The notes under the pieces were generated by a model that searched no databases, was not told where the DNA came from, and worked only from the letters and a program-made list of their open reading frames with translations. From the NCBI RefSeq assembly GCF_018977255.1, contig NW_024704742.1, positions 20,586,001-20,650,000 on the forward strand: DNA of 64,000 nucleotides. Reading direction: 5' to 3'. Shown here one piece after another: positions 1,673 to 61,614 of this stretch. Both the position numbers and the translations under genes were made by a program. How positions within the stretch are numbered: position 1 is the stretch's first letter; every line of letters starts with the position of its first letter. Source of the DNA: Callorhinchus milii. Taxonomy: Eukaryota.

Positions 1673-3799
1673 TCCTGGTCAACAAGTGTACCCCACCCCT
1701 CTTTTGGCAGGCAAGCTTTCAGCCATTCTGTCTCCTTTCTCTGGAATTCTACCCATCTTAATTAGGAACAAGTACAAACTTCACTCCAACACGATCCCTT
1801 TTAGGAGCATTATTTCCGTGAGTACCCACTTGAATCCTTATTAAAGGATTCTCATTGGTAATTATTGCGTGTTAGTCTCCACTTTGTCAAAAATATTGTA
1901 ACCATAATTTAGAGTAACTGGTTTTCTATGACCTGCTCTGTGACCTGAACTTGAAATCCTGGCACTGAAGAGCACACAGAAATTTCTGGGAATGGCGTGT
2001 TCCAAATATTAAGATTGTTCTCTTTCTCTGAAGCGTAATGGAAATAATAGTGCGTAAAACATGACAGAAAAAAAATACTAATCAATTCCCTTTTCTCTCA
2101 GAAATACCTCTAAGCATTTCCAGCAAAACAAATAACTGACTCTGAAATGACTGAATGCAACATTATTTACTAGATGTTGCGGAACATGACAAATGTATTG
2201 CATACAATTCAAATCACAAGCATGTCTTTGTTCTAAGGGATGATGATTTCAAATTTGCAAAGTAAAGGAAAATGATGGGCATGAAAGCCTAGTTGAGCTG
2301 TTATTCAGTGAAATAAGGTGTCTTAGTAACTGGTGAATCCATGGAACATTTGAGTTACAATAGACTGAAAGATGTAATGTTGCAAGCTAGATAGGATGTC
2401 CTCCCCTTCCTGATAAACTCAGTGCTGTCAAATTGCTGACTTTGTACGAACTCAGCAGTTGCAACAATTGCAATGCAGAATGCATCCAGACTACATATTA
2501 ATGGATGGAATATCCCAGAGACTATGATTCTGATTTCAGAGCCTCCTGAGGACACCTAGTGTCAGAAAGGAGAAGTGAGATGTTTCAAACTGTGTAATAT
2601 CAATAATATATGATGTGTTGTAATAAATAATCTGATAAAATGTGCTCAATTAATTTCTGATCTATTGGATGCATCACGTATATTCAATTTGAATAGCGAT
2701 TTTACCTGATTGCCTTTTCTCCCTTACCTTTGCCCAAAGAACAAATCGATTAACAGCTGCCTTGAAGCGACAAGTAGAGATGCCCAATTGAATTATCAAA
2801 CGCTTCAGGACACTCTCCCAACGTGAAAGTCTCCATATAAGTGTGAATTGTAAATTGCATTGTAATTGAGGACGTTCAAAAGTGTAGCTCAGCTATACTT
2901 CTTGATATCATGGTTCTTTACTTCAAACTGAGCAGTGCATGTCAGAACTTTCTCACCCGCCTGATCATTGGCCTTGAGCCAACTCATATCCAGACACAAA
3001 AGAGCTAAACAGCAGCAATTAATTAGTGACACAACAAACTCCAGCTACAATAACAAATTCACTTCTTTCTTAGCCAATTTAACTCTTCATAATACAATAC
3101 ACAGCACACTGACACCTCCTCATACCATTTTATCTAGTGTTATACCAGCTACCCTGTGACACCCGTTATGCTTCGATAGAAGTTCTGCAATTCAGTTCAA
3201 TTTAATTAAAAACAATTTTGGCAACATTGTAGTTCTGAAAGTTATCTTGACACCTACTAATGAGGAACTTACACTTAATCAAAACAACATTCACAATCAA
3301 GATTGCGATTCTGCAAGTCAGCTCGACACTAACTAACAAGTATAAGCAAATCCAACCAAAACTATTTTTAATAATTCACTTCTGATCACAACACTAGAAA
3401 TTATAGCCTTACAATTTCACCTAGTCTTAGCCTGTGACAAGACTTTGTCTTAAAGTGTACGTCACTCTGAGATGCTACCCATGTGAAACATGCTATATCA
3501 ACAAGTTGTTACTGTTGTTGTTGAAACAAGTTAAAATTCGGGCTGCATTTATTTTTAAGAACAGTGGAAAACCATTTTTGCAAATTATAATTAGAAAATT
3601 AATCTGTACACAATTCAATGATCAAGGCTATTTTTACTTGGAAAGTAGATTTGAAAGAAATACCTGGCTCAGTCTGTAGCATTCTTGGCTGAATCAGAAG
3701 ATTGTGGGTTCAAGCTCCATGTGGGGACAGATTCACTCTTGTTTATTTGTCCCCTCCAACAGAGGTGAAATTGACTCTGGTTCTCAATTTGTATGTCTC

Positions 3800-4320
3800 C
3801 AGCTCCCTTCTATCCTCAACTAAATTCAATCCTTAATATACCAGGAGTAAGTCAGCTGGCGGTTTCCAGGGTGATACGAGATGTAACAAATACCCTTAAA
3901 ATTAAAGTGCACCACAAATGTTTTATCTACAGGCAAGATGTTCAGATGCACAACAAACAAATAATTTATGACATTGCTGGCTTCCCCTGAAGAGAAGGTG
4001 TAATGGAATTCCATACAGTTGGATTGCACAGTGCCAACAGACCCCTGGCCAGAAATCCTACCTTGGCAAAAACAATTCTTACTCAATGAATGTGCAGATG
4101 ACAGGTAATGATCAAAGAAGGAACATGCATGTTAGTTACCATCACTCTAAAAGTCTACTTGATGGATGCATTTTAGGTGCATGCTCTATTCTAAGTTTAA
4201 TGGAAGAAGATAGATGAATGGATGTTGGACTCAAGGGATCAGAGCTAATGTGGTGTGCCTATAGCTGATGGCCTGCAGTAGAACTCAGAGATATGAATAG
4301 AGAGATTACACTCATTCCCA
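3800..4320 (+). pseudogene. Decayed PIF/Harbinger transposase relic
   Basis: Reads GVSQLAVSRVIRDVTNTL...YDIAGFP*REGVMEFHTV, then after a frameshift YSMNVQ...SLLDGCIL (4080 onward). Collinear with Harbinger/HARBI1 motifs GxSQxxVSR, AGFPxVxGxIDCTH, SxNVQ, PGSxHDxxIL. Confidence 0.75.
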
Positions 4321-4485: not shown

Positions 4486-6599
4486 ATGATATGTTTAGTT
4501 TTTTTCCCACTGCCTGGATCAGTTTTGTTGGACACATAGCACCATCCTTTCAAAATCAGTAAAACTGTGGTAGTTTGCTGTACATTGCATAACATAGCCA
4601 AAGGCAATGGTCTCACCATAGAACTGAAGAACACATGCACAAAACCTGGTATAAACGAGGGGGGAGCTGAGAATCTAGAGCAACAAAAGGATGAACAGTG
4701 TCAGTAATAAAACAGATGTCTCCAACACCAAGACCACATCAATCATTTCTTTGTGTGACTTGCAAAGTTTCAGAAAGTTTACTGCTTTTTTTTATTTCAT
4801 TGCCAGACATGGCCTTTTTGTTCTCTTGCATTCGTCACTGCAGATGCATGGTAATCTGTAAATAAATCACAAAACAAATTACTTTCTGCTGTACCATAAT
4901 TTATTGATATTACAAAGAATATCTAACGATAGCAAGTGCCATGCAATGTGTTTTCCTTGTCTTTGTAACACTTAGCCTTTTTTTGGTCCGAATCAGTTTC
5001 CCGGCATAGTTCAATAGCTCTGGTTGAAGCTTACACTCCCACCAGACATCTGAAAAGAGGAGAGTGGGACGAGTCTCTGTTGGGACGATTGTACCTAAGG
5101 CTTATAGATTCGCGCTACAGGAACATTGATCCTTCTCGTCAAGGCACTGGGATATGTCAATGCTGCCCAGCCACATGCTTATCTCTCACAACAGTTGTGA
5201 CCATCTAGTCAGCCTTTCAATCTAACACAGTATTGAGATACACTTAGACAATGTCTCTCTGCCAATTGAGTCCCTTCCACAATGCTCCACTCCCTCTCTG
5301 CTGCCTTTGACAACACCATTCTCCTCCACGGTCCACTTTTGTGACACCACATTTCATTGTTCCATTTGTGTTCACTTGTTTTCAGGTGGATATTAATGAA
5401 CCATAAAACTGTTTCGGAAGAGAAGGGCATTTCTCCTGGTGAACTGTCAACAATCCTGCAGATTAATTGTCCAGTTACACAAAAGTAGTTTCTGGGACTT
5501 TGATGGTGATAACGGTTGCAACATTTATCTACAACAGTCACTACATTTGACAACAATTATCAAGAAGTGCTATGAAAATGCAAGTTCTTCTTTTCCATGT
5601 TAGAAATCCAGTTATTTAAATATACCTCCTTATTGGCAGTGGTAGGAGTGATGCATTTAACACACTCACATTCATCATGTTAGTTCTACCTGTTTAATGT
5701 AGAATATTTAATTTCTTTGAACGCCTACCTCTTTGAATGTATTGATAGCCAGCTGCCCCTCTCCCTTGTTCTCATTCAACCCTGTCTGTACCTTATTAAC
5801 CCATGTAATGGGCTCCACGTAAATACAAGTTGCTCTTCTTAAGTAGTCGGAGTGCAATTTCTAGCACATATTCGCATTTGTCCTTATTTTGGATACAGAT
5901 AAACAACAACAAATTACATTTGCATAACATCTTTCACATCAGGAGGACATCCCAAGATAAATATTTTCTACCTAATGTTGATATTTTCATTGGTAAATAA
6001 AAACATTCAGATAATACTGAGGTAAAAGATACATTTATAAAAATGAACCATCCATACCTCTGTTCAAACCAGAAAAACAATTATTCTGTTGAGGTGTGAT
6101 GCAGAAACGATAAAGGAAGAGGAAAACTGGGGAATGGGTAGAGATTAAATCATGGTTAACAGAAAAACAAGGCTCAGGTTCTGAACACGGGGCAAAACTG
6201 CATGGGAATGATTTATTGAGAAGGTTTTACCACTCAGTCGGGAGTCACAAAGGCCGGTTTGCACTGTGTGTGGAGGCACTGGATTTCAAACTGTTAGCTT
6301 CTGGCTTTTAAACAAGCTTCTGTACAGTGGGAACAAAACCTAAACTGTGAATCATTTACAAAATTTGATTCTTGTGAGGTTCACAGTGTTTTCCGAGACA
6401 AGGAAAAGATAAAGGATTAAATAGTGCCGCACTTACAGCAGTCAATATGGAAAGTGTTCTACAAAACATCATCTCTCTCCTTCTCAACCTCTCTTTCAAA
6501 CCCACTGAACCTTTAGTGCATAACGTTTTCGTTTGGTTCCATCTTTAGCTCTCCTCCTTCCTCACATTCAGTCACTTTTCTTCATCGTCACCACATTGT

Positions 6600-10500: not shown

Positions 10501-11868
10501 TATTTTGATATGCTCTGTAACCTCAGTCTAATCACAATACTATGTTGAGAAAAATGTTCACCTACAAAAATACAGTCACTGCTCTTCACCGTAAAAATTC
10601 TGTTAAGCACTTTGAGATGTTTCAACGACATGATAAGTTTCTATATCAAATGCAAGAATTACAATGCTAAGAACTCCATAATAATATATTATATCTATAT
10701 TAGGTATGGACTACATCTGTGACTGTTTGAGCACTTTGTTTTGGCTCAGAAAAACAGACTCGGAATAACTTAATAAAAACTGTTTTTTTTGCATTATCTG
10801 CAATTTAACATGTGCAAAATTGCCAATCTTTATCTTTATCTGCACTCTAAAGCCATAATAGATGTCTGCACCATTACCTTCAGCTACATTTCCCAACAAT
10901 ATGTATCCCTCAGAGGTAAGTAAAGTTAAAGAATTTGAAATTAAGCGAATTAAATAATGAATCTGGAAACTCTTGAAAACATGCACATTTAGTGACCAAT
11001 TAAATTAACAAGGTGTCACAAAAGTGACCAATGAACAGAGCAACAGTTATTATAGCTTTTTAAATCCTTAGGTTAGTTTATAGGTACATGGTACTTAACA
11101 TATACCTAGAACAAGTATAGGTGGAGATTTTACTTGTGTACATCCCATATTATAAGCAAAAGCAAGGTTTGCTCTGGGAGTTACCCAATAACCTCTTTGA
11201 TGCATGCATAGGGAAAAGAAAATAGGAGGGGTGGGGGCTTTTGTGGAGTACAAACACTGGCAAGGACTGGTTGGGCCAAATGGCCTGTTTCCATGCATTA
11301 TCATTATCATTATCATTCTATCTAGTTTTATGCAGGTCTTTTGGAGAATGGGCAATTTCTACAGCCAGCATGTTCATCACAACAAATGTTTGCTGCGTGT
11401 TACAAGAGACTTAGCATAGGTTCCTGATGCACAAGTTTAGAAATGAAAATCTGTCGAAGACCAGCAAACAGTACCTGAGAAGCAGATGGTGACACAGAAG
11501 CAGGATAGAGAAAGAGTGCTGGCTTCACACTAGGGCGGTAGGCAAATTGACTTGCGAGGCCATCTGCTATGCCTGTTGTTCTCAAGTTAATATTATGAAC
11601 ATGTTTGTGTTGCTGTGCATCTGGATGTTTCTAAATTGAACACTGACATTGATATTGTCATAGCTTGCTTCAGAACACACATACAGTGCTTTGCAAAGCT
11701 CTGAGATGTTGGGTGCTGTAACTAGACTAGTTTATAGCCTGCAAGGCTTATACAGTTCATTGCCCGTTGGTATATTTGAGGTACTTCAAGACAGGTCCTG
11801 TCAAGCAGCAGCTGTACACCAAGGACTCCTCTTCTTGGATAGAAGCTTTTGGTGGTTGAATAGAATTT

Positions 11869-11949
11869 AAAAATCTTGCATTTGATATAGTACACGCCAG
11901 TAAGACATCTCAAAGCGCTTCACAGAACTTACTGTAAAGTGTATTTGTC
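11869..11949 (-). mobile_element. SINE/L2-type 3' tail fragment
   Basis: cttgcatttgatatag...gacatctcaaagcgcttcacagaa...ctgtaaagtg is the reverse complement of the shared SINE tail. Confidence 0.75.
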
Positions 11950-12033
11950 CAAATTTACTCATGACTCAAAATAAGTGAAGCAGTAGTGACAGAGGACACA
12001 GCAAAAGATTTTTTGGCAATTCAGCAGACGCAT

Positions 12034-12273
12034 GGAAAAAATGCATACTCTCTCACAATGATATAAACCCAGCTCATGTTCCCTATTAATGGGTGAACAA
12101 TCCGTTAATGGATTTGATTACACAATGTTGCAAGAGCTGATATTGAAGGTTGTCAATATTTACACTTGACGATGAGTGTTTTCTCTGTAATAACATTTCT
12201 GTTGTCGCCTGCTTAAACTTCAAAAGGTAGAAGAATCTTCAGGCCCTTTTATTTTGCCATTTGTTTATCAAGA
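12034..12273 (-). pseudogene. Decayed 28S rRNA fragment (domain V, peptidyl-transferase region)
   Basis: Plus strand taaacccagctcatgttccctattaatgggtgaacaatcc is the reverse complement of the conserved 28S GGATTGTTCACCCACTAATAGGGAACGTGAGCTGGGTTTA (2 mismatches to the recalled sequence). Collinear blocks continue: aagagctgatattgaagg, cctgcttaaa, caaaaggt, aggccc, atcaagat. Confidence 0.88.
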
Positions 12274-12697
12274 TGTACAAAGTATTAATTATACTATATA
12301 TATTGCCATTTGTTTCTCCTTCGAAGGCACTGACTTTAAGATCAGATCCCAGGAAGTGGTGTGAAATAACATTGGAAGATGCGGAATCCAGTTCTATCTT
12401 TATGCAACCTCACACTTTTCATCAGAGTTTGGATGTTGGTAGCGATCCAGAGTGAAAACTCTGAATGTCTTTTTTTCCCAGTCTAACAGCATAGAAGATT
12501 GAAACATGTGACCTTCTGGTCTCTTTGACCATCAGAGAAGCAAGCTACAAATCAAATTTGACACTGCTGGTAGGAAAGTAATAAAAATAGGATCTAATTT
12601 GTGGGCTGGGTTAGCAACCTATGTACAGAATTTGTCGTTTTGGTTAACCATGTGTATACTGGTGCATACAAAGGGAATTCAAGTCCCTTCAAATATG

Positions 12698-13430
12698 TGT
12701 TCAACTGTCTTTTCTTCCCCACATCCAAGCCGTGACCCACTCTGCCTTCCCTCACCTCTGTAACATCGCTCAACTCCGCCACTACCTCACCCCTCAGGCC
12801 GCTGAAAGTCTTGTTCATGCCTTCATCACCTCCAGGCTCGACTATGCAAATGCTCTGCTTGTCGGCCTTCCCAACTCCTCCCTCCACAGGCTGCAGATAA
12901 TCCAGAACTCTGCAGCCCATGTTCTCTCCCGCACCAAACTCCTCGACCCCATCTTCCCCATTCTTGCCCGATTCCATTGGCTCCCTATCCTTCAGAGGAT
13001 CCAGTTCAAGATCCTGGTCCTCACCTACAAAGCCCTCCATGGTCTCGCCCCACCTTACCTCTGCGACCTCCTCGTCCCCTACCAACCTGCCGGTTCCCTC
13101 CACTCAGCCGGCTCTGGCCTGCTCCACGTCCTCCAACCCACCCGCCCCACCATGGGCGAGAGAGCCTTCAGCCACTCTGCCTCCAACCTCTGGAATTCAT
13201 TCCCACAATCACTCCACCTCGCCCCCTCCTTAGCCTTCTTCAAGTCCGCCTCAAAACCCTCCTTTTCGACCATGCCATCGGCCACGCCCCTTCCCGTCCC
13301 CTCCTTTCTCCCTCCCTGACCCCAGCTCAGGTCTGAAATACTGTACACTGTCCAGCGCCTTGGGACATCCTCCCGACGTGAAAGGCGCTATACAAATGTA
13401 ATCTTGTTATTGTTGTTGTTGTTGTTGTTG
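12698..13430 (+). mobile_element. L2 LINE 3' fragment, relatively young
   Basis: ORF 12732-13319 HAFITSRLDYANALLVGLP...HWLPILQRIQFKILVLTYKALHGLAPPYL; 3' stem-loop and (TTG)n tail. Confidence 0.95.
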
Positions 13431-13918: not shown

Positions 13919-14280
13919 GTGGAGTCCTGTAGCTCAGTGGTTAGAGCACTCGCCTTGCAAGCGAGAAACCTGGGTTTGATTCCTGGCAGGGCAACACGAT
14001 GGGCAAGATTCCTTATTCCATACACTTCTGTTACCTAGCAGTAGTAGGAACCTGGTTGTTAGTCGATTGGCGAATTACTTTTCTGGGAGTAATAATCCCT
14101 TCAAAAAATAATAATAATAATAATTTGGTCACAAACTGCTGTGCCAATGGGCTGCCACATTTCTCTCAAAAAATCTACTTTCAATTCACTGTACACGCTT
14201 TCTATGAAGCGCTTTGAGACGTCTCAAAGGTGTGATAAGGTGCTATATCAAATGCAAGGGTTATTATTATTATTGTTATT
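13919..14280 (+). mobile_element. tRNA(Ala-like)-derived SINE family A, long form, full length
   Basis: ggagtcctgtagctcagtggttagagc (A box), ttgcaa anticodon loop, ggtttgattcc (B box), central ttacctagcagtagtaggaacc block, L2-type tail with (ATT)n. Confidence 0.9.
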
Positions 14281-18082: not shown

Positions 18083-18372
18083 TAATAATAATCCTTGCAT
18101 TTGATATAACGCCTTATCATATATTCGAGACATCTCAAAGCACTGTACAGAATATACTATAAAGTGAATTGACTATATTTTGTGGGCGAAACCAGGCAGC
18201 CAATTGCACATAGCAGTGTCCCACAAACAGTCGTGGATTGAGTGACCAAATTATTTTTTATTTATTTTGAAGGAATTATTACCCCCAGAAAAGTGATCTG
18301 CCAATTGACTAACAACCAGGTTCCTACTTATTGCTAGGTAAACAGAGCTTTGTAGAGTATGGAAACAAGGTT
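18083..18372 (-). mobile_element. SINE family A long form, 3' part (interrupted by an L2)
   Basis: Reverse complement of tail through the central block; the head resumes at 19469-19529. Confidence 0.88.
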
Positions 18373-18375
18373 CTG

Positions 18376-19468
18376 TCCTTGAATGGTTCAGATCCTACTT
18401 CTTACACCGTCTCCACTTCATCTCCACAAACGGTTCTCCTCTTTCCCCCGCAACTTCTTGTGCGACGTTCCTCAGGGCTCTGTTCTTGGTCCCATCCTCT
18501 TCGATATGTATATGCTCCCTCCCGCAGACAGGGGGTCAACACCCACATGTATGTGGATGACACCCAACTCTATATCTCTACTTTCAACCTCAACTCCAGC
18601 ACCATTGCTGTCCTGATTGAATGTCTGTTAGACATTGAGTCCTGGATGAGAGCTAACTTTCTACAGTTGAACGTCAACAAGACTGAGGCTCTCCTGATTG
18701 GCTCCTGTCAGCGCCTCCACACCTCAGGTGCTGGCAGCATCACCATCCAAGGATGCCAGTCCAGCATCTTGTTTGACCCTCAATTATCCTTTCTACCCTA
18801 CAACCATGCCATAATCCTGCTCTGCCTTCCCCCACCTCTGCAACATCACCCGGCTCTGCCATTGTCTCACTCCGCAAGTTTCCGAGACCTTCAAACATGC
18901 ATTCATAACATCCAGACTTGACTATGAAAACTCTGCTTGTTGGCTTCCCCAACTCCTCCCTCCATAGCTTGCAGATCATCCAGTACTCTGCAGCCCGTGT
19001 CTTCTCCTGCACCAGGCTCTGTGTCCCTATCACTCCCATTCTCGCCCGACTCCACTGGCTTCCCATCACACAGAGGATACAGTTCAAGATTCTGGACCTC
19101 ATCTTCAAAGCCCTCCATGGTCTTGCTCCCCTCTACCTCTGCAACCTCCTAAACCCCTACCAACTTGCCCACTCCCTCAGCTCAGCGGTCTCCTGCCTGC
19201 TTCACTTCCCTGCCATTAGGCCTTCAGCCACTCTGCCCCCACCCTTTGGAACTCCATCCCACAGTCCCTCTCCCTTGCCTCCTTCAAGACCTGTCTCAAG
19301 ACCATCCTCTTTGACCGTGCCTTCAGTCACCCTCCTTTCAACTCTACCCCAAACCTCTCTGATCCCAACCCCCAGCTTGGGTTCGAAACACTAATTGTCC
19401 AGCACCTTGGGATGTCCTCCCGACCTGAAAAGCACTGTACAAATGTAATTTTGTTGCTGTTGTTGCTG
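18376..19468 (+). mobile_element. L2 fragment (RT to 3' tail), frameshifted
   Basis: VPQGSVLGPILF, HMYVDDTQLY, NFLQLNVNKTEALLIG, HWLPITQRIQFKIL; (TTG)n tail. Confidence 0.95.
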
Positions 19469-19529
19469 GGAATTGAACGCAGGTCCTCTCGCTTGCGAGT
19501 GCTATAACCACTAAGCTACAGGTCTCCAC
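19469..19529 (-). mobile_element. SINE family A tRNA head (other half of 18083-18372)
   Basis: ggaattgaacgcaggtcctctcgcttgcgag...aaccactaagctacaggtctccac. Confidence 0.85.
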
Positions 19530-20364: not shown

Positions 20365-20679
20365 AATAATAATAATAATCCTTGCATTTGATGTAGCGCT
20401 TTTCACGTCGGGAGGACGTCCCAAAGCCCTTCACAGAACACACTGTAAAGTATATTTGTCGGCGAACGCGGCAGCTAATTGCACACAGCAATGTCCCACA
20501 AACAGTCATAGATTGAAAATGACCAATTTATTATTGTTTTTGGTTTTTTTGGAGGGATTATTATTAGGCTCTGTGTGGAGTAAGGAAACTTGCCCAAGGT
20601 TTCGCCCTCTGCCTGGAATTGAACTCAGGTCTCTGGCTTGCAAAGCGAGTGCTCTAACCAGTGAGCTACAGGACTCCAC
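20365..20679 (-). mobile_element. SINE family A, short form, full length, young
   Basis: Near-identical reverse complement of 52994-53323; CpGs retained. Confidence 0.93.
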
Positions 20680-21786
20680 AGTAAAATGGATCTTACTGAA
20701 AACAACAACAACAATTGCATTTATATAGCGCACTTAAGCAGGGTAGAGTCCCAGAGCACTTTTCTAAGATTGCTTACTAAGAACCTGGTGCAGTTGCCTC
20801 TTAGTTTCAGTCACTGTTCAGCTACTTGCCTCAGAGACAACTTGATAGTGTTAAGAAAGATATTCAAATCCAATTTACAACAACAAAGTGAAAGAAAATG
20901 CTCTGAGCTACATATCATAATCCAACAACCAAAGTCTTTAAATGTCTTATTTCATTCACAAAAGATGATCGTCTCTCCAAGACCCAAGTCCCAGTACAGT
21001 AATTTGGACACAATTAAAACCGTGTCTCCATGAAAAATACATGATTACAAGCTATTTTGTGTCAGAATATGTAAAGGATATTTTTAACATGGTTCTTATT
21101 TTTTGACAGATGGCTAGGTTGGAGTTGTGTATATAATTTAATAAGCTACAGTTTATATAGAACTAATATGTGTTTTGTAACATGTTCCAATGTATCAGTC
21201 ACTAAGATAAGATCATTAATATCCTTGACTCCAAATTTTATATAACATTTAATTTGCATATTGATATATCACCACTAATGGCATAACAATTGTATCAGCT
21301 AAATCTCATAAAGATAAAGATATGAATTTGAATTATAAGACAAAGTTATATTTTAAATTAGTCTACGTTGTATTTGCAAATAAAATCTAATCGGCATTGT
21401 TCACAAATTATCTGTATATAATATTACAATTGATATATTTCTATGATTTTGTGTTGAAAAAAATCAATTCTTGAATTAACATGCCAAGCAAATTAAGCCT
21501 GATTTTCATAATTTGCAAATACATTACCACTAATAGCCCAATGAGTATATGCTACATGTTTTATAAAATTGCAGTCTGGCAGCGATTAATAAAAAATGCA
21601 AATGGTTTGCACTATTCCTCATATTGATCCCTGTTTAATTTTCTTACACAAAGGCACATTATTAAAAAAAAAGTCACTTTTTAATTTCAGCACTCAGAAC
21701 TGTATTAAATATATAATTAATTAAATATAAAGATTAATACAATAAATCTGGAATGATGAAGTTAATAATAATTCCATGCTGCATTA

Positions 21787-22863
21787 ATCATGTCTGGCAT
21801 CCCTCAGGGCTCTGTCCTTGGCCCTCTCCTTTTCAATATCTATATGCTCCCCTTGGTGACATCATCCGCAGACATGGGATCAACTTCCACGTATACGCAG
21901 ATGACACCCAACTTTATTTCTTTGCTTCCACCCTCGATTTCAGGACCAATGCTGTCCTCACAGACTGCCTGTCGGACATCAAGTCCTGGATGAGAACTAA
22001 CTTCCTGCAGTTGAATGTCAACAAGACCAAGGCCCTCCTTCATGGCTCCCGTCAGTGCTTCTGTAACTTGGGTGCTGACAGCATCTCCCTCCATGAATGC
22101 ACTCTAGATTTCATGGAGCCAATACAGAACCTTGGCGTTCTGTTCAACCCTCAACTGTCCTTCATATCCCACATCCAAACTATGACCCGCTCCGACTTTC
22201 CCCACCTTCGCAACATTGCTCGGCTCCTCCAATGTCTCACATTGCAGATTGCCGAGACCCTCATACACGCATTCATAATATCCAGGCTCGACTATGCAAA
22301 TTTCCTGCTTGTCGGCCTCCCCAGCTCTGGCCTCCATGGGCTGCAGATCAACCAGAACTCTATAGCCCATGACCTCTCCTGCATCAAGTTCCATGACCCT
22401 ATCAGCCCCATCCTCACCCGTCTCCACTGGCCTTCCACCACACAGAGGATACAATTCAAGATTTTGGTCTTCACTTTCAAAGCACTCCATGTCTTGCTCC
22501 CCCTACCTCTGTGAACTCCTAACCCCCTAACAACCTGCTGCTCCCTCTGCCCAGCGGACTCCGGCTTATTCACATCCTCCGCCTTGCCCGCTCCACCATT
22601 GACAGGTGGGCCTTCAGCCACTCTGCTCCCACCCTCTGCCTCCATCCCGCAGTCACTCCACCTCACCCGCTCCCTTGCCTCCTTGAAGACCCATCTCAAA
22701 ACCCTCCTCTTTGACCGTGCCTTCAGTCTCCCTCCTTCCTTCCCTGCCCTCCACTCTCCCCGATCCCGACCCCCAGATCGGGTCCGAAACACTGATTGTC
22801 CAGTGCCTTGGGGTGTCCTCCCGACGTGAAAGATGCTATACACATGTAATTTTGCTGTTGTTG
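21787..22863 (+). mobile_element. L2 fragment (RT to 3' tail)
   Basis: GIPQGSVLGPLLFNIYM, then in a shifted frame HVYADDTQLY...SRLDYANFLL; L2 tail. Confidence 0.95.
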
Positions 22864-45957: not shown

Positions 45958-48358
45958 CAACAACAAACATCAACAAAATTACATTTGTATAGCACCTTTC
46001 ACGTCATGAGGACGTCCCAAGGTGCTGGACAGACAGAGTTATGGACCTGAGTTGAGGGTCAGGGTGGGGGAGGGCAGGGGGGGAAGCAAGGAGATCGAAA
46101 GCACGGTCGAACAGGAGGGTCTTGAGGTGGGTCTTGAAGGTGGTGAGGGAGGGGACGAGACGGAGGGACTGTGGTTAGGAGTTCCACAGTGTAGGTGCAG
46201 AGTGGCGGAAGACCCACCCGCCGATAGTGGGGCGAGCAAGGCAGGGGACGTGAAGCAGGCCGGAGCCCACTGAACAGAGGGAGCGAACAGGGTGGTAGGG
46301 GGTTAGGAGGTTGAAGAGGTAGGAGGGAGCAAGACCGTGGAGGGCTTTGAAAGTGAGGACTAGGATCTTGAACTGTATCCTCTGTGTGATGGGAAACCAG
46401 TGGAGTTGGGCAAGGATGGGGGTGATAGGGTCGCGGAGCCTAGTGCGGGAGAGGACACGGGCTGCAGAGTTCTGGATGATCTGCAGCCTGTTGAAGGAGG
46501 AGTTGGAGAGGCCGACAAGCAGTGAGTTTGCATAGTCGAGCCTCGATGTAATGAATGCGTGTATGAGGGTTTTGGCGTCCTGCGGTGTGAAACAGTGTCG
46601 GAGTCGGGTGACGTTGCGGAGGTGGGAAAGGCAGAGCAGGTCATGGTGCAGATGTGGGGTAGAAAGGATAGTTGAGGGTCAAACAAGTCCCCAAGGTTCT
46701 GGACTGACTTAGCAATGGTGGAGTGTGCATCCATGGATGGTGATGCTCTCAGTGCCTGAGGTGTGGAGGCCCTGACGGGAGCCAATCAGGAGAGCCTCGG
46801 TCTTGTTGACGTTCAACTGTAGAAAGTTAGCTCGCATCCAGGACTTGATGTCTGACAGACATTCTGTCAGCACAGCAGTGGTCCTGGAGTCAAGGGTGGA
46901 GGCAGAGAGGTAGAGTTGAGTGTTATCCGCATACATGTGGAAGTTGACCTCATGTCTGTAGATGATGTCCCCAAGAGGGAGCGTGTAGATGTTGAAGAGG
47001 AGGCGACCAGGACAGAGCCCTGAGGAACGTTGCATGAGACGGTCCGGGGGCTAGAGGAGAAGCCATATGAGGAGATGAAGTGCAGGCAGTATGGGAGGTA
47101 CGATCTGAACCAATCACTGTGGAGATTGAGGTGTGAGGAGAGGCGGTGGATGAGGATAGAGTGGCTGACGGTGTCGAAAGCAGCAGAGATGTCAAGGAGG
47201 ATGAGAAGGCAGAGGGAGTCCTGGTAGCAGATGGACAGAATGTCATTTGTCACTTTGATCAGGGCGGTTTCTGTGCTGTGGGTGGCACGGAAGACCGATT
47301 GGAGGCATTTGAGAAGGGAGTGGCGGGAGAGGAAGGAGCGAAGCTGAGAAGCAACAATTCATTCTAGGACCTTGGAAAGGAAGGGGAGGTTGGAGATGGG
47401 GCAGTAGTTAGGGAGTAGAGAAGGGACCAGGGAGGGTTTTTTAGGGATAGGAGTGACAACAGCATTATTTAAAGGGGTGGGAACAGTACCAGAGGACAAG
47501 GAGAGGTTAACAATGTTAGTGAGTAGAGGGGCAAGGAGCTGGAAGGTAAGGAGAGGGGTAGGGATGGGTTTGAGGAGCAGGTGGTGGGTTTCATACAGAT
47601 TATGGTGGTGATGAGAGAGGAGGGGAGACGGGTTCAAAGGTGCAGAGTGGGGGTGGGTAGGGGCTGGCGTGGGAGGAGGAGATGGGGAGGGGGTAGGCAG
47701 TTGCAGTGGCAGAGGCAGCTGAGCGGATTCCCTCGACTTTGGATTCAAGGTGTCCAGCATCGCCTCGCAGTTGGCATTTGAGGTGAGGATGGGTGAGGCA
47801 TGACAGGGTGGGTGGAGGAATCAGTTCATGATGGAGAAGAGGAGCCTGGGGTTGTCCTTAACCTCCAAGATTGTCTTGGAGTAGAACGACGATTTAGCGG
47901 AGGCGAGAGCAGAGTGGTAGGATTTGAGGTGTTCCAGTCAAATCTGCCAGTGGACAGTTAGGTTTGGTTTAAGCCAGGTGTGCTCAGCAGAACGCACCTG
48001 GGCTTTAAGGGAGCAGAGATGGCTGGTGTACCAAGGTGATTTACATGAGTAGGAGACAGTTTGGGAAGAGAGGGGAGCGAGCGAATCGAGAGTGGAGGAA
48101 AGGGAGCTGTGGAGAAAGGTGACCGAGGAGGATAGGTCATTGCGCGAGGATGCCCAGAGGAGAAGGAGTTCAGATGACTCCAAGACAGTTGAGAGGGAGG
48201 TGAGGGGAGGGAGAATTTTTTCCAGGGGCGGTACGAGATTGAGGTGAGTTGAGTGGTGGTGGGGAGAGGGATTGAGGAGTCAAGGGAGATGAAGTGATGG
48301 TCCGAGATTGCTTTGTCGATGATGGTGAGGTCCGAGATAGTGAGGCCCTGAGTGATCA
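45958..48358 (-). mobile_element. L2 LINE, 2.4 kb 5'-truncated copy (endonuclease C-terminus, RT, 3' tail), disrupted
   Basis: ISDHHFISL at about 48290; NYCPISNLPFLSKVLE; LILLDISAAFDTVSH; VPQGSVL; HMYADNTQLY (YADD changed to YADN); many frameshifts. Confidence 0.95.
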
Positions 48359-48593
48359 GCCATGCTATAATGAGATTTCCCTAGATAAGGAATTCGGACT
48401 ATCAGAATTTGTTTGTTATACAATAAAGTTGTTTGTCAAATATGTTGCTTAACCAGATCTTAAAGATTCACATCTAAATTCCACTCGCAAACAAGAATGT
48501 TTTGGGGTTATCATCCTTGCATTTCGGCAAGTTATTTATTATGTTTTGCTTTTAGATTCAGTTGGTGGCGCAAACCCACTTTGCATGTAATTC

Positions 48594-52286: not shown

Positions 52287-52589
52287 GGAGTCCTGTAGCT
52301 CAGTGGTTAGAGCACTCGCTTTGCAAGCGAGAGATCTGAGTTCAATTCCAGGCAGGGAGAAACCTTGGGCAAGTTTCCTTACTCCACACGCCTAATAATA
52401 ATCCCTCCAAAACAAAAAAACAATAATAAATTGGTCATTTTCAATCCATGACTGTTTGTGGACATTGCTGTGCTGCCCACAAATATACAGTCAATTCACT
52501 TCACAGTATATTCTGTGAAGCGCTTTGAGACTTCTAGAAGACGTGAAAAGCGCTATATCAAATGCAAGGATTATAATTATTATTATTAT
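52287..52589 (+). mobile_element. SINE family A short form
   Basis: Intact tRNA-like head (gctttgcaagc), no central block, tail of intermediate type, small internal deletion. Confidence 0.92.
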
Positions 52590-52993: not shown

Positions 52994-53323
52994 GGAGTCC
53001 TGTAGCTCAGTGGTTAGAGCACTCGCTTTGCAAGTGAGAGACCTGAGTTCAATCCCAGGCAGGTCAGGGCGAAACCTTGGGCAAGTTTTCTTACTCCACA
53101 CACCTAATAATAATCCCTCCAAAACCAAAAACAATAATAAATTGGTCATTTTCAATCTACAACTGTTTGTGGGACATTGCTGTGCGCAATTGGCTGCCGC
53201 GTTCGCCCACAAATATACATTCAATTCACTTTACAGTGTGTTCTGTGAAGCGCTTTGGGACGTCCTCCCGACGTGAAAAGTGCTATATCAAATGCAAGGA
53301 TTATTATTATTATTATTATTATT
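52994..53323 (+). mobile_element. SINE family A short form, young
   Basis: A box tagctcagtgg, B box agttcaatccc, tail gggacgtcctcccgacgtgaaa, about 8 (ATT) units. Confidence 0.95.
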
Positions 53324-59146: not shown

Positions 59147-60870
59147 TCATAGAATCATAGAATCGTACAGCACAAAAAGAGGGCATTCGGCCCATCGAGT
59201 CTGTGCCGGCTCTTTGCAAAGAGCAATGTAACGTCAATCCCACTCCCCAGCCCTTTCCCCATAACTCTGCAGACCCATCCTCCTCAAATATTCATCCACT
59301 GCATTTTTAAAAGTTGTTATCGAATCGGCCTCGACCACCCTTTCAGGTAATGCATTCCAGATTCGAACAACTCGCTGCATGAAAACATTTCTTCTCACCT
59401 CCCCTCTGCTTCTTTTAGAGACTATTTTAAATCTGTGACCTCGAGTCACCGACACACCCACCAGTGGAAACAGTTTTTCCCTTTCTAACCTATCAAATCC
59501 CCTCATGATTTTGAAGACCTCTATTAGGTCTCCTCGTAACCTTCTCTGCTCCAATGAGAATAATCCTCACCTCTCTAGCCTTTCCTCATAATCAAGGTCC
59601 CTCATTCCTGGTACCATCCTCGTAAATCTCCTCTGCACCCTTTCCAATGCCTTAACATCCTTCCTATAGTGTGGTGCCCAGAACTGGGCGCAGTATTCTA
59701 ACTGAGGCCTAACCAGTGTTTTATATAGGTTAATCATAACCTCCTGACTCTTGTACTCTATGCCCCTATTTATAAAGCCTAGTATCCCACATGCTCCTTT
59801 TACAGCTTTATCTACCTGTCCTGCCACCTTCAAGGATTCATTTACCTGAACCCCCAGGTCTCTCTGTTCTTTCACCCCCATTAAGATTGTGTTACCGAGC
59901 CTATATTGCCTCCCCTCATTCTTTCTACCCAAATCCATTACCTCGCATTTATCCGCATTGAAATTCATCTGCCATGTGTCTGCCCATTTTACCATTCTGT
60001 CTATGTCTTCCTGCAGTTGGCTGCTATCCTTCTCACTGTTTATCACCCTACCTAACTTTGTGTCGTCCCCAAACTTGGAAATGGTACTTGCTATACCCAA
60101 GTCCAGGTCATTTATGTATATTAAGAAGAGCACTGGTCCTGGGGGATGTCACTGTACACTTCCCTCCAGTCAGAAAAGCAGCCATTCACCACAACTCTCT
60201 GCTTTCTGTCTCCCAGCCAGTTCTGGATCCATGCTGCCACTGTTCCTTTTATACCATGGACTTCTATCTTTCTTACAAGTCTTTCATGTGGCACTTTGTC
60301 AAATGCCTTTTGAAATACCATATAAATTACATCAACTGCACTACCTTTATCCACCCTCTCCATTACCTCATCGAAAAATTCTATTAGATTTGTTAGACAA
60401 GATTTGCTTTTAACAAATCCGTGCTGGCTGTCCCTAATTAACCCATATTCTTCTAAGTGAAGATTTATTCTGTCCCGGACTATAGTCTCCAGGAGTTTCC
60501 CCACTACTGATGTTAGGCTGACTGGCCTGTAGTTCCCAGGTTTGTCCTTCTGTCCCTTTTTGTACAAGGGAGTAACATTGGCCACTCTCCAGTACTCTGG
60601 CACCACCCCTGTGTCCAATGAAGATTGAAAAATTGTAGCTAAAGCCTCTGCTATTTGTACCCTTGCCTCCCATAGTACCCTTGGCTGCATCCCATCGGGA
60701 CCGGGTGACTTATCTACCTTCAGCCCAGTCAACCTTTTCAGTACTTCCTCTCTGTTTATACGTACCCTATCCATTTCCTTTACCTTCTCCTCCAATACTG
60801 CGGCATTTGGTGCATCCACTTCTTTTGTGAAGACAAATGCAAAGTACTCATTCAGTACATCAACCATATT
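59147..60870 (-). mobile_element. CR1 LINE, 1.7 kb 5'-truncated copy with the RT domain, frameshifted
   Basis: KSPGPDG, NYRPVSLTSVVGKLLE, QHGF, KAFDKVPH, LFLIYINDL, KFGDDTKL, LVRPQLEYC, RRLRGDLIEVFK; tail atcatagaatcatagaatc. Confidence 0.97.
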
Positions 60871-61614
60871 TGTGTATGTTTGTGTATCGTTGTATCTCTG
60901 GAAATCTAACTTGGATTTTCTTTGATTCTCTCGCTTCCATCCCTCATTCAAGCCAAGTCTCAAAATGTACTTCTTTGACTGTGCTTTCAGTTATTTTACC
61001 CCTTCCACCTTCTCAGGTCCCACTCCTCACTTGGGTGCCCATTCAGCATGACATGAATGGTGTTGTATATGTATAAATTGTATTGTCTTATATTTTGAGC
61101 TGGAGTGTTTTTGCTCTCTCCACACAACCTTTTAGTTCTCTCTTTCAAACATCTAATTGCCTATCCAAGTGTGGACTCTGCTTCAACAATGGCTTGCAAA
61201 AGACAATTTGATGATCCAAACATCCTCCATTTGTTGATTCATATCAGTACTGGTGGTCGTGGTGAGAACTAACCTTTTCTTGGATATTGTCCTTGGAATA
61301 GCACTGAGAAGAGTTGAAGAAGACTCTGGTTCTTCTTGTCTCTCCTCAAGAGCATGTAAGTTAAGCCTGTATCATATAAGACATTTGTCCAAAAGGAGAA
61401 GCAGGTGTTCTTCCTACTCAGTTTCTGTTAACCCTGCAAGCCAAAGCCTGTATAGGTAGGGTGGCCCTAGTTGAATCTAGTTTGGCAGGAGTGCCCTCAA
61501 TGGTAAGCTATGTGGTTTTAGCTAGTTAAACTCCAACAGTACCTAAATGCACACTCTGAGGTCCCCAAATCTTGGCTCTTGCACAAAGTCAATCTCGGCT
61601 TGGCTTTTTTGGGC

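Follow-up and report, generated by a model that had tools for sequence, protein, structure and literature searches.

A stretch of 28S rRNA-like sequence lies on the minus strand of a chromosome-scale contig of Callorhinchus milii, a short distance upstream of a tail shared with abundant SINEs, and the question raised by this locus is whether the two once formed a single retroelement or came to be neighbours independently. The first-pass annotation had put forward both possibilities, namely, an isolated rRNA retro-pseudogene with an unrelated neighbour and a relic of a chimeric family with a 28S head, a linker and an L2-type tail. The window analysed here is the whole stretch of 64,000 nucleotides at C1:20,586,001-20,650,000, taken from an assembly of 991.5 Mb in 1,762 contigs. 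Positions in rDNA are numbered after L041, in which positions 1 to 2046 are the 3' part of the eukaryotic LSU rRNA (Rfam RF02543, 1586 bits). The locus was divided as follows.

12247 to 12274, minus strand: candidate continuation of the 28S copy on its 5' side, as far as rDNA ~1349; weak, outside the best local alignment
12017 to 12246, minus strand: decayed 28S rRNA copy, by local alignment to rDNA 1387-1636; best-preserved core at 12149-12048
11993 to 12016, minus strand: candidate last 24 nt of the 28S copy, very decayed, to rDNA ~1660; weak, from a multiple alignment with 21 other copies only
11949 to 11992, no strand assigned: spacer (the earlier "linker"), unique sequence by genome-wide search
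11868 to 11948, minus strand: ~81-bp 5'-truncated 3' tail of abundant tRNA-headed SINEs, by repeat matches and consensus identity

When 28S rDNA of the same genome was aligned with window positions 12300 to 11960 (minus strand), 12246-12017 matched rDNA 1387-1636 with a local score of 78, compared to a mean of 11.1, a standard deviation of 1.5 and a maximum of 16.5 in 200 shuffles; the reference for this comparison was the type B rDNA described below. We take rDNA 1387-1636 to be the peptidyl-transferase/A-loop region immediately 5' of the sarcin-ricin loop. Under default BLAST settings, positions 12149-12048 (102 nt) were 78% identical to 17 rDNA places, and under relaxed settings the window copy was 66.5% identical to rDNA over 248 columns. 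Identity over the 28S part as a whole was 65.9% (166/252), or 67.4% with CpG sites left out, and 10 of its 19 CpG positions were altered. The 35-mer at 12103-12069 nonetheless fit a CpG-tolerant 28S pattern with 0 mismatches. With 34% divergence, the window copy was the most decayed of 22, the remaining 21 standing at 73.7 to 88.0% identity.

Rfam gave no LSU match anywhere in the window at gathering score and none between 11000 and 13200 at E <= 10, and the identity of the 28S part is therefore based on the alignment to rDNA of its own genome. Weak snoRNA and lncRNA rows reported by Rfam between 11000 and 13200 were at chance level and were discarded, as was an snR69 row that mirrored the 28S target stretch. 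The locus is situated at 20.6 Mb on the 139-Mb contig C1, apart from the rDNA contigs. These results confirmed the decayed minus-strand 28S sequence described in the first-pass annotation, with slightly shifted limits, and showed that the CpG-type changes and the distance from any rDNA context noted there were real. The 5' limit of 12273 proposed at that time is possible, given that ATCTTGAT at 12274-12267, read directly, exactly matches rDNA 1349-1356, yet it lies beyond the end of the best local alignment at 12246. At the other end, 11993-12016 falls outside that alignment, and the 3' end of the window copy is secure only to rDNA 1636. We consider it likely, jointly with the whole of the reading developed below, that positions ~12246-12017 (perhaps 12274-11993) represent an old tailless retro-copy of part of 28S rRNA.

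The tail proved to be a common repeat. A genome search with window positions 11869-12273 returned 706 first-look candidates, and among the 40 that were scored, one was the locus itself and 28 covered only query positions 326-405 (window 11948-11869) at 80 to 86% identity; the remaining 11 came from small contigs with ~11-kb periodicity, of which L041 is one, and matched query positions 125-226 at 78%. There were 25 tail matches inside the 64-kb window (self included) and 37 across 70 kb of other loci, a density of about one per 2 kb on both strands. The window tail was 81.0% identical to the consensus of those 37 copies (64/79 positions, plus 6 gap columns), and no SINE body preceded it. Four of the tail matches in the window sit 130 to 280 bp 3' of tRNA-like heads recognized by Rfam on the same strand, so that the tail is assigned to tRNA-headed SINEs, in keeping with the earlier claim that it is common to the SINEs of this window. 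It is probably also common to the LINE partner of these SINEs ("L2-type" being the label used in the first-pass annotation). Two frames matching RVT_1 are followed on their own strand by a tail match, an arrangement consistent with the SINE tail having a LINE partner.

Several other features of the window were recorded in passing. TRNA-like Rfam matches of 29.6 to 59.3 bits were found at 13923-13994, 52292-52356 and 52996-53067 on the plus strand and at 20609-20671 and 19464-19520 on the minus strand; at least four of these five are heads of ~300-bp SINEs, with tails that resemble 11948-11868, and are not ordinary tRNA genes. Decayed LINE reverse-transcriptase frames (RVT_1, E values from 4.7e-05 to 1.8e-15) were found at 46178-48380 and 59570-60990 on the minus strand and at 18313-18918 and 21738-22511 on the plus strand. 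Stop-free frames of 169 to 223 codons occupy both strands at 12594-13336, ~350 bp from the 28S fragment, and Pfam gave no match for them.

Between the 28S part and the tail is a gap of 68 bp, which shrinks to ~44 bp should the weak 3' alignment as far as rDNA 1660 be trusted. A spacer is thus present, as had been claimed, but at 68 or ~44 bp instead of ~85 bp. Window positions 11946-12047 had no copy besides themselves in the whole 991-Mb genome, the spacer had no match in ~144 kb of other loci, and it resembled neither 28S nor the part of the SINE consensus that precedes the tail.

The 28S part is not alone in the genome. A genome search with window positions 11955-12300 recovered 17 rDNA places and 22 to 23 places on chromosome-scale contigs. 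Five segments that together span the 3'-most 2,046 nt of 28S were then used as queries, and first-look candidates numbered 21 for rDNA 1-400, 39 for 380-800, 52 for 780-1250, 343 for 1250-1720 and 45 for 1662-2046, these counts being candidates and not copy numbers. In the four control segments nearly every row was rDNA or an rDNA-like contig, and the only segment over-represented among the five was the one ending at the sarcin-ricin loop; the controls are all drawn from the last 2,046 nt. Matches to single 35-mers were also counted with a CpG-tolerant pattern and up to 3 mismatches. The 35-mer at rDNA 1552-1586 had 79 matches, comprising 17 in rDNA contigs and 62 dispersed places on chromosome-scale contigs (window included), compared to 0 matches for a reversed-pattern control. 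The 35-mer at rDNA 1661-1695, just 3' of the loop, had 18 matches, namely, the same 17 in rDNA and a single dispersed place. By these counts, the dispersed 28S copies number at least about 60, and up to ~300 if judged by first-look candidates.

Some of the 62 dispersed matches lie close together. Five 28S fragments at C15:4375880-4395218 have a regular 4.8-kb spacing and identical private changes, and a related copy is found at C15:4303248; the array appears to be one old insertion that was later amplified by tandem or segmental duplication. Two dispersed 35-mer matches on C1 lie 3 kb apart.

With these copies in hand, the arrangement at the window can be compared with that at other places. 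Not one of 41 other 28S copies (20 of them inspected at their junctions only) shared sequence with the window outside 28S. In an all-against-all comparison of the window with 21 other copies, colinear similarity was confined to the 28S part, with the exception of one pair, L052 and L075, which have a common SINE on their downstream side. Within the 300 bp that follow the 28S part, a same-strand tail was found at 1 of the 21 other copies (L049, at the different distance of +190), and opposite-strand tails within 300 bp were found at 3 of 21 (L053, L074 and L055). Repeats of any kind lay within 300 bp downstream of 11 of 22 copies and upstream of 11 of 22, with no orientation bias. Moreover, the 28S part was 65.9% identical to rDNA whereas the tail was 81.0% identical to its family consensus (Fisher P value = 0.012). 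A composite SINE family with a 28S head, a linker and a LINE-type tail was consequently rejected, as head, spacer and tail occur together in no other copy. The chimeric family suggested in the first-pass annotation was therefore unsupported by the tests proposed there: the linker is unique and found only itself when used as a query, no dispersed copy carries linker and tail, and head and tail are not equally diverged. As for the alternative offered there, a retro-pseudogene with an unrelated neighbour fits, but the notion that it is isolated fails, since there are at least 62 dispersed copies of the 28S segment with a common 3' boundary. The head-spacer-tail layout seems to be an accident of neighbouring insertions, and the SINE tail is apparently an unrelated, younger repeat end. 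All of this suggests that an old retro-fragment of rRNA and the end of a SINE happen to adjoin at this locus, and that they do not make up a new composite retroelement.

The ends of the copies were read by relaxed BLAST in a sample of 42 of the 62 dispersed places (22 from the earlier searches and 20 further ones). The 3' ends fell at rDNA 1646-1663 in 32 of 42 copies, earlier in 10 and beyond in none, so that most copies are truncated at a defined position, in what we take to be a single-stranded region, 386 nt short of the 28S 3' end (L041 2046). With rDNA 1250-1720 as the query, 15 of 20 dispersed rows stopped at query positions 400-412 (rDNA 1649-1661), and the other 5 stopped earlier. The 3' ends are ragged over ~15 nt and form two groups, ending in ...AATCC(T) and ...CTCAGTA(C). 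The rDNA at this boundary reads CCTGCTCAGTACGAGAGGAACCGCAGG, and we take the boundary to be the sarcin-ricin hairpin by the AGUACGAGAGGA motif at L041 1657-1668. On this assignment, the copies stop in the 5' stem and the first loop bases of the hairpin. The 5' starts, on the other hand, were scattered from rDNA 1227 to 1567. In this rDNA the word ATCCT is confined to positions 1397, 1499 and 1648. Counted post hoc, 9 of 30 starts fell no more than 3 nt from one of its two internal sites; a clustering of 5' ends at ATCCT was rejected when the next 20 copies clustered elsewhere (1430-1436, 1470-1478 and 1546-1551), and it was also weakened by several BLAST starts that were imprecise once the flanks were read.

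The flanks gave little in common. No A-rich run or common sequence was present 3' of the copies at any of the 42 junctions, the (ATT)n runs near some copies belonging to adjoining SINE ends, and none of the 42 copies contained sequence 3' of rDNA 1663 or any rDNA spacer. There was no signal of target-site duplications when true flank pairs were compared with mismatched ones (5.38 versus 5.22; P value = 0.19) among copies that are 8 to 33% diverged. This weighs against the reading of the copies as retro-copies, if little at such an age, and LINE-type integration is accordingly putative; possible duplications at L083 and L045 were suggestive by eye only. Three copies have unusual layouts. In L080 and L096, a short inverted 28S piece is joined tail-to-tail at the sarcin-ricin boundary, and in L054 a 28S piece is repeated in a head-to-tail tandem. 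Such layouts are unpredicted by simple target-primed reverse transcription and also count against that reading; they are a hint that cDNA ends were free or that synthesis jumped between templates. By eye, L081 also seemed to carry an inverted piece joined tail-to-tail, and L083 a 28S end of 16 nt on its upstream side, but BLAST recovered neither and both were dropped.

Where the two rDNA types of this genome differ, the copies mostly side with type B, the more canonical-looking one. Nine columns had a base that was common to 40% or more of the copies but occurred in neither type of rDNA, and at every one of them the rDNA sequence is a CpG. Derived changes are thus shared at CpG positions only, and nothing points to a master copy that had gathered mutations of its own; the pattern fits independent origins of the copies from rRNA, presumably followed by parallel CpG decay. 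A common 3' end together with variable 5' ends points to reverse transcription from one site on the RNA, here an exposed loop of the mature ribosome, with random stops. The overall pattern matches that of tailless retropseudogenes, a group reportedly also treated by Schmitz and colleagues in 2004, and the class is for that reason read as tailless 28S retro-copies. We thus regard it as probable that the dispersed fragments arose independently from 28S rRNA as tailless retro-copies, by priming at the sarcin-ricin loop or from a cut there, and that the tail in the window is a separate and later arrival.

Known systems resemble these copies to different degrees. In tailless retropseudogenes the truncation falls in a single-stranded stretch inside the RNA, and internal priming has been proposed for them (Noll et al. 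2015, PMC5322556). Likeness to the present copies extends to an abundant, non-polyadenylated source RNA, 3' ends at defined single-stranded positions and the lack of an oligo(A) tail, which was likewise absent from the 3' junctions of the copies; moreover, 5'-truncated 28S and 18S forms are known (PMC5322556). Among mammals, 28S-derived tailless forms are described as rare (10 in human) and tied to L1, perfect cases carry target-site duplications, and outside mammals the class is reported only from a lizard (PMC5322556). Unlike that group, the copies described here comprise at least 62 dispersed copies of one 28S segment, in a cartilaginous fish, with no duplication signal. SINE28 elements are dispersed 28S fragments (65 to 437 bp) that were, like the present copies, repeatedly re-derived from rRNA with no single master. 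They derive from the terminal ~500 nt of 28S and end at 5033-5035 of 5035 (Longo et al. 2015, PMC4994717, supplementary table 1); target-site duplications flank them, their tail is A-rich or a simple repeat, and they are reported in mammals only (PMC4994717). The present copies, unlike SINE28, are tailless and end at rDNA 1646-1663, with 386 nt of 28S still to follow. Membership in SINE28 was rejected, the 3' ends not being terminal and no A-rich or simple-repeat tail appearing at the 42 junctions. In a review of 2024, SINE28 is the sole 28S-containing transposable element listed (PMC10946416).

Primate 28S/L1 chimeras also contain sense 28S fragments (50 to 482 nt) with a recurrent boundary, for which template switching or RNA ligation was proposed; they involve mostly human 28S 3636-4115, fused to the L1 5' end with a recurrent 5' start (PMC13174262). 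The present copies differ from these in having no fused LINE or SINE, in deriving from another 28S segment and in having a recurrent 3' rather than 5' end. Composite SINEs combine RNA-gene heads (tRNA, 5S, 7SL or snRNA) with LINE-derived tails (PMC10946416). A structural-RNA head, a body and an L2-type tail are the layout that the first-pass annotation proposed for this locus, whereas the head, spacer and tail of the window recur together in no other copy. Taken as a kind, tailless rRNA retro-copies are thus already known; dispersed 28S fragments ending at the sarcin-ricin loop were not found described in the full-text literature searched (Repbase/Dfam and subscription journals aside). Repeat curators may know such matches as "LSU-rRNA" fragments.

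Three other explanations were weighed against independent retro-copying. According to one of them, the 28S piece, spacer and tail entered together as a single-event chimera like those of 28S and LINE-1 in primates, a LINE reverse transcriptase having copied the last ~81 to 125 nt of a SINE or LINE RNA and then switched to 28S at the sarcin-ricin loop. The two parts are indeed on the same strand in the fitting order (28S 5' of the tail), sense-oriented 28S/L1 chimeras are reported at 18 primate loci (PMC13174262), and at the measured density a same-strand tail start within 100 bp would occur by chance at only ~2 to 3% of loci. With ~60 to 300 copies, however, a few such chance neighbours are expected. 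Nor is the 28S part of the window fused directly to the 5' end of a sense LINE or SINE; a unique spacer of 44 to 68 bp intervenes that is unlike 28S, the SINE consensus upstream of the tail or anything else in the genome. When the lesser divergence of the tail (81% versus 66% identity; P value = 0.012), the tails within 300 bp of the 21 other copies (1 same-strand and 3 opposite) and the equal frequency of repeats upstream and downstream (11/22 each) are added, a single-event chimera is improbable. A family of true 28S-derived SINEs, SINE28-like or new, with transcribed masters and the window as a decayed member, is more improbable still. Such a family would be multicopy, SINE-sized (100 to 430 bp here) and bounded by a common 3' end, as the copies are, and SINE28 proves that SINEs of this sort can exist (PMC4994717). 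But the copies have no shared diagnostic changes outside CpG, no LINE-derived or A-rich tail and no fixed 5' end (starts at 1227 to 1567), and SINE28 derives from the true 28S 3' end, while the present copies end 386 nt earlier.

A DNA-mediated origin, in which rDNA orphons or free cDNA or rDNA fragments were captured at breaks by end joining, would account for the missing duplication signal, for 3' ends that are ragged over ~15 nt and for the lack of a tail, and the tail-to-tail pieces in L080 and L096 and the tandem in L054 suggest free ends and snap-back synthesis. Yet there is no reason for a DNA process to halt at one RNA loop with variability on one side only, and neither spacer nor anything 3' of rDNA 1663 is included in a copy. 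In copies this old, short duplications would be erased regardless, and a captured free cDNA would itself stem from RNA, which is compatible with retro-copying. A DNA-mediated origin is accordingly unlikely, though less so than either the chimera or the SINE family.

If independent retro-copying is correct, a reverse transcriptase, presumably that of a LINE of this genome, would take 28S rRNA as its template and start the cDNA at the sarcin-ricin loop or immediately 5' of it, either by internal priming in the exposed single-stranded loop or from an rRNA 3' end made by a cut at the loop. The cDNA would extend 100 to 430 nt towards the 28S 5' end and stop, and it would then be fixed in a chromosome without a poly(A) tail. 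Every copy would be made afresh from rRNA, with no master element. At the window, the 81-bp SINE/LINE tail, 44 to 68 bp downstream, would be a separate later insertion, 5' truncated, of a repeat with roughly one copy per 2 kb. Homology, copy number, a common 3' boundary with variable 5' ends, the absence of a tail, linker or shared flanks and the restriction of shared changes to CpG positions are observed; from these we infer an RNA intermediate, priming at the loop and the type of reverse transcriptase responsible.

For annotation, the locus is best treated as neutral debris. Its by-product is an apparently lineage-specific accumulation of probable 28S retro-copies with the sarcin-ricin loop as its limit, in which one 430-nt segment of 28S would have been copied at least ~60 times from the loop and neighbouring segments almost never. 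Relative to the earlier description, tailless rRNA retro-copies would be extended past mammals and one lizard. The pile-up offers a testable handle on how LINE reverse transcriptases of non-mammalian vertebrates pick up non-polyadenylated RNAs and on whether germ-cell rRNA is nicked or accessible at the sarcin-ricin loop. A bolder and rather doubtful idea is that the boundary is a genomic fossil record of an event on germ-line ribosomes, either cleavage of the loop or priming there by a ribosome-bound LINE reverse transcriptase. With cleavage, a ribotoxin-like or damage-induced cut would leave a large 5' fragment that is reverse-transcribed from its new 3' end; with priming, a LINE reverse transcriptase made at the factor-binding site would prime on the exposed loop. 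In either version, the sarcin-ricin loop would be the specific place at which reverse transcription gains access to rRNA in this lineage, and the tandem and tail-to-tail copies would be products of end-to-end template jumping or of snap-back on free fragments.

The rDNA of the genome was itself heterogeneous. Two distinct 28S types are present in the assembly, type A (e.g., L041 on C328) and type B (e.g., L068 on C1375), with further rDNA on contigs C877, C835, C708 and C1330. The two types were 96% alike over rDNA 1250-1720, compared to 76 to 87% in the neighbouring segments. Around the sarcin-ricin loop, type B looks like canonical vertebrate 28S, and it is type B that the dispersed copies resemble. 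Zebrafish has a maternal/somatic pair of rDNAs, which types A and B recall; they could be a pair of that sort, a second locus or foreign sequence.

Type B 28S is also interrupted at two positions. In L076 (C982:518-3739), C582, C877:25150, C708:3175 and C29, it starts exactly at the break in TTAAGG/TAGCC (L041 857/858), which we take to be the classic R2 insertion site. Open frames adjoining this truncated type B 28S bear R2-like C-terminal motifs, and Pfam gave no match for the two frames. From the break at TTAAGG/TAGCC and these motifs, the frames are likely to be R2. In L076 (1440-1510, minus strand), C582 and C29, type B 28S breaks again after ...CTTGTGGCGGCC (rDNA ~1471), and past this point it is followed by unrelated C-rich and then (GA)n-rich sequence, a second interruption of those rDNA units.
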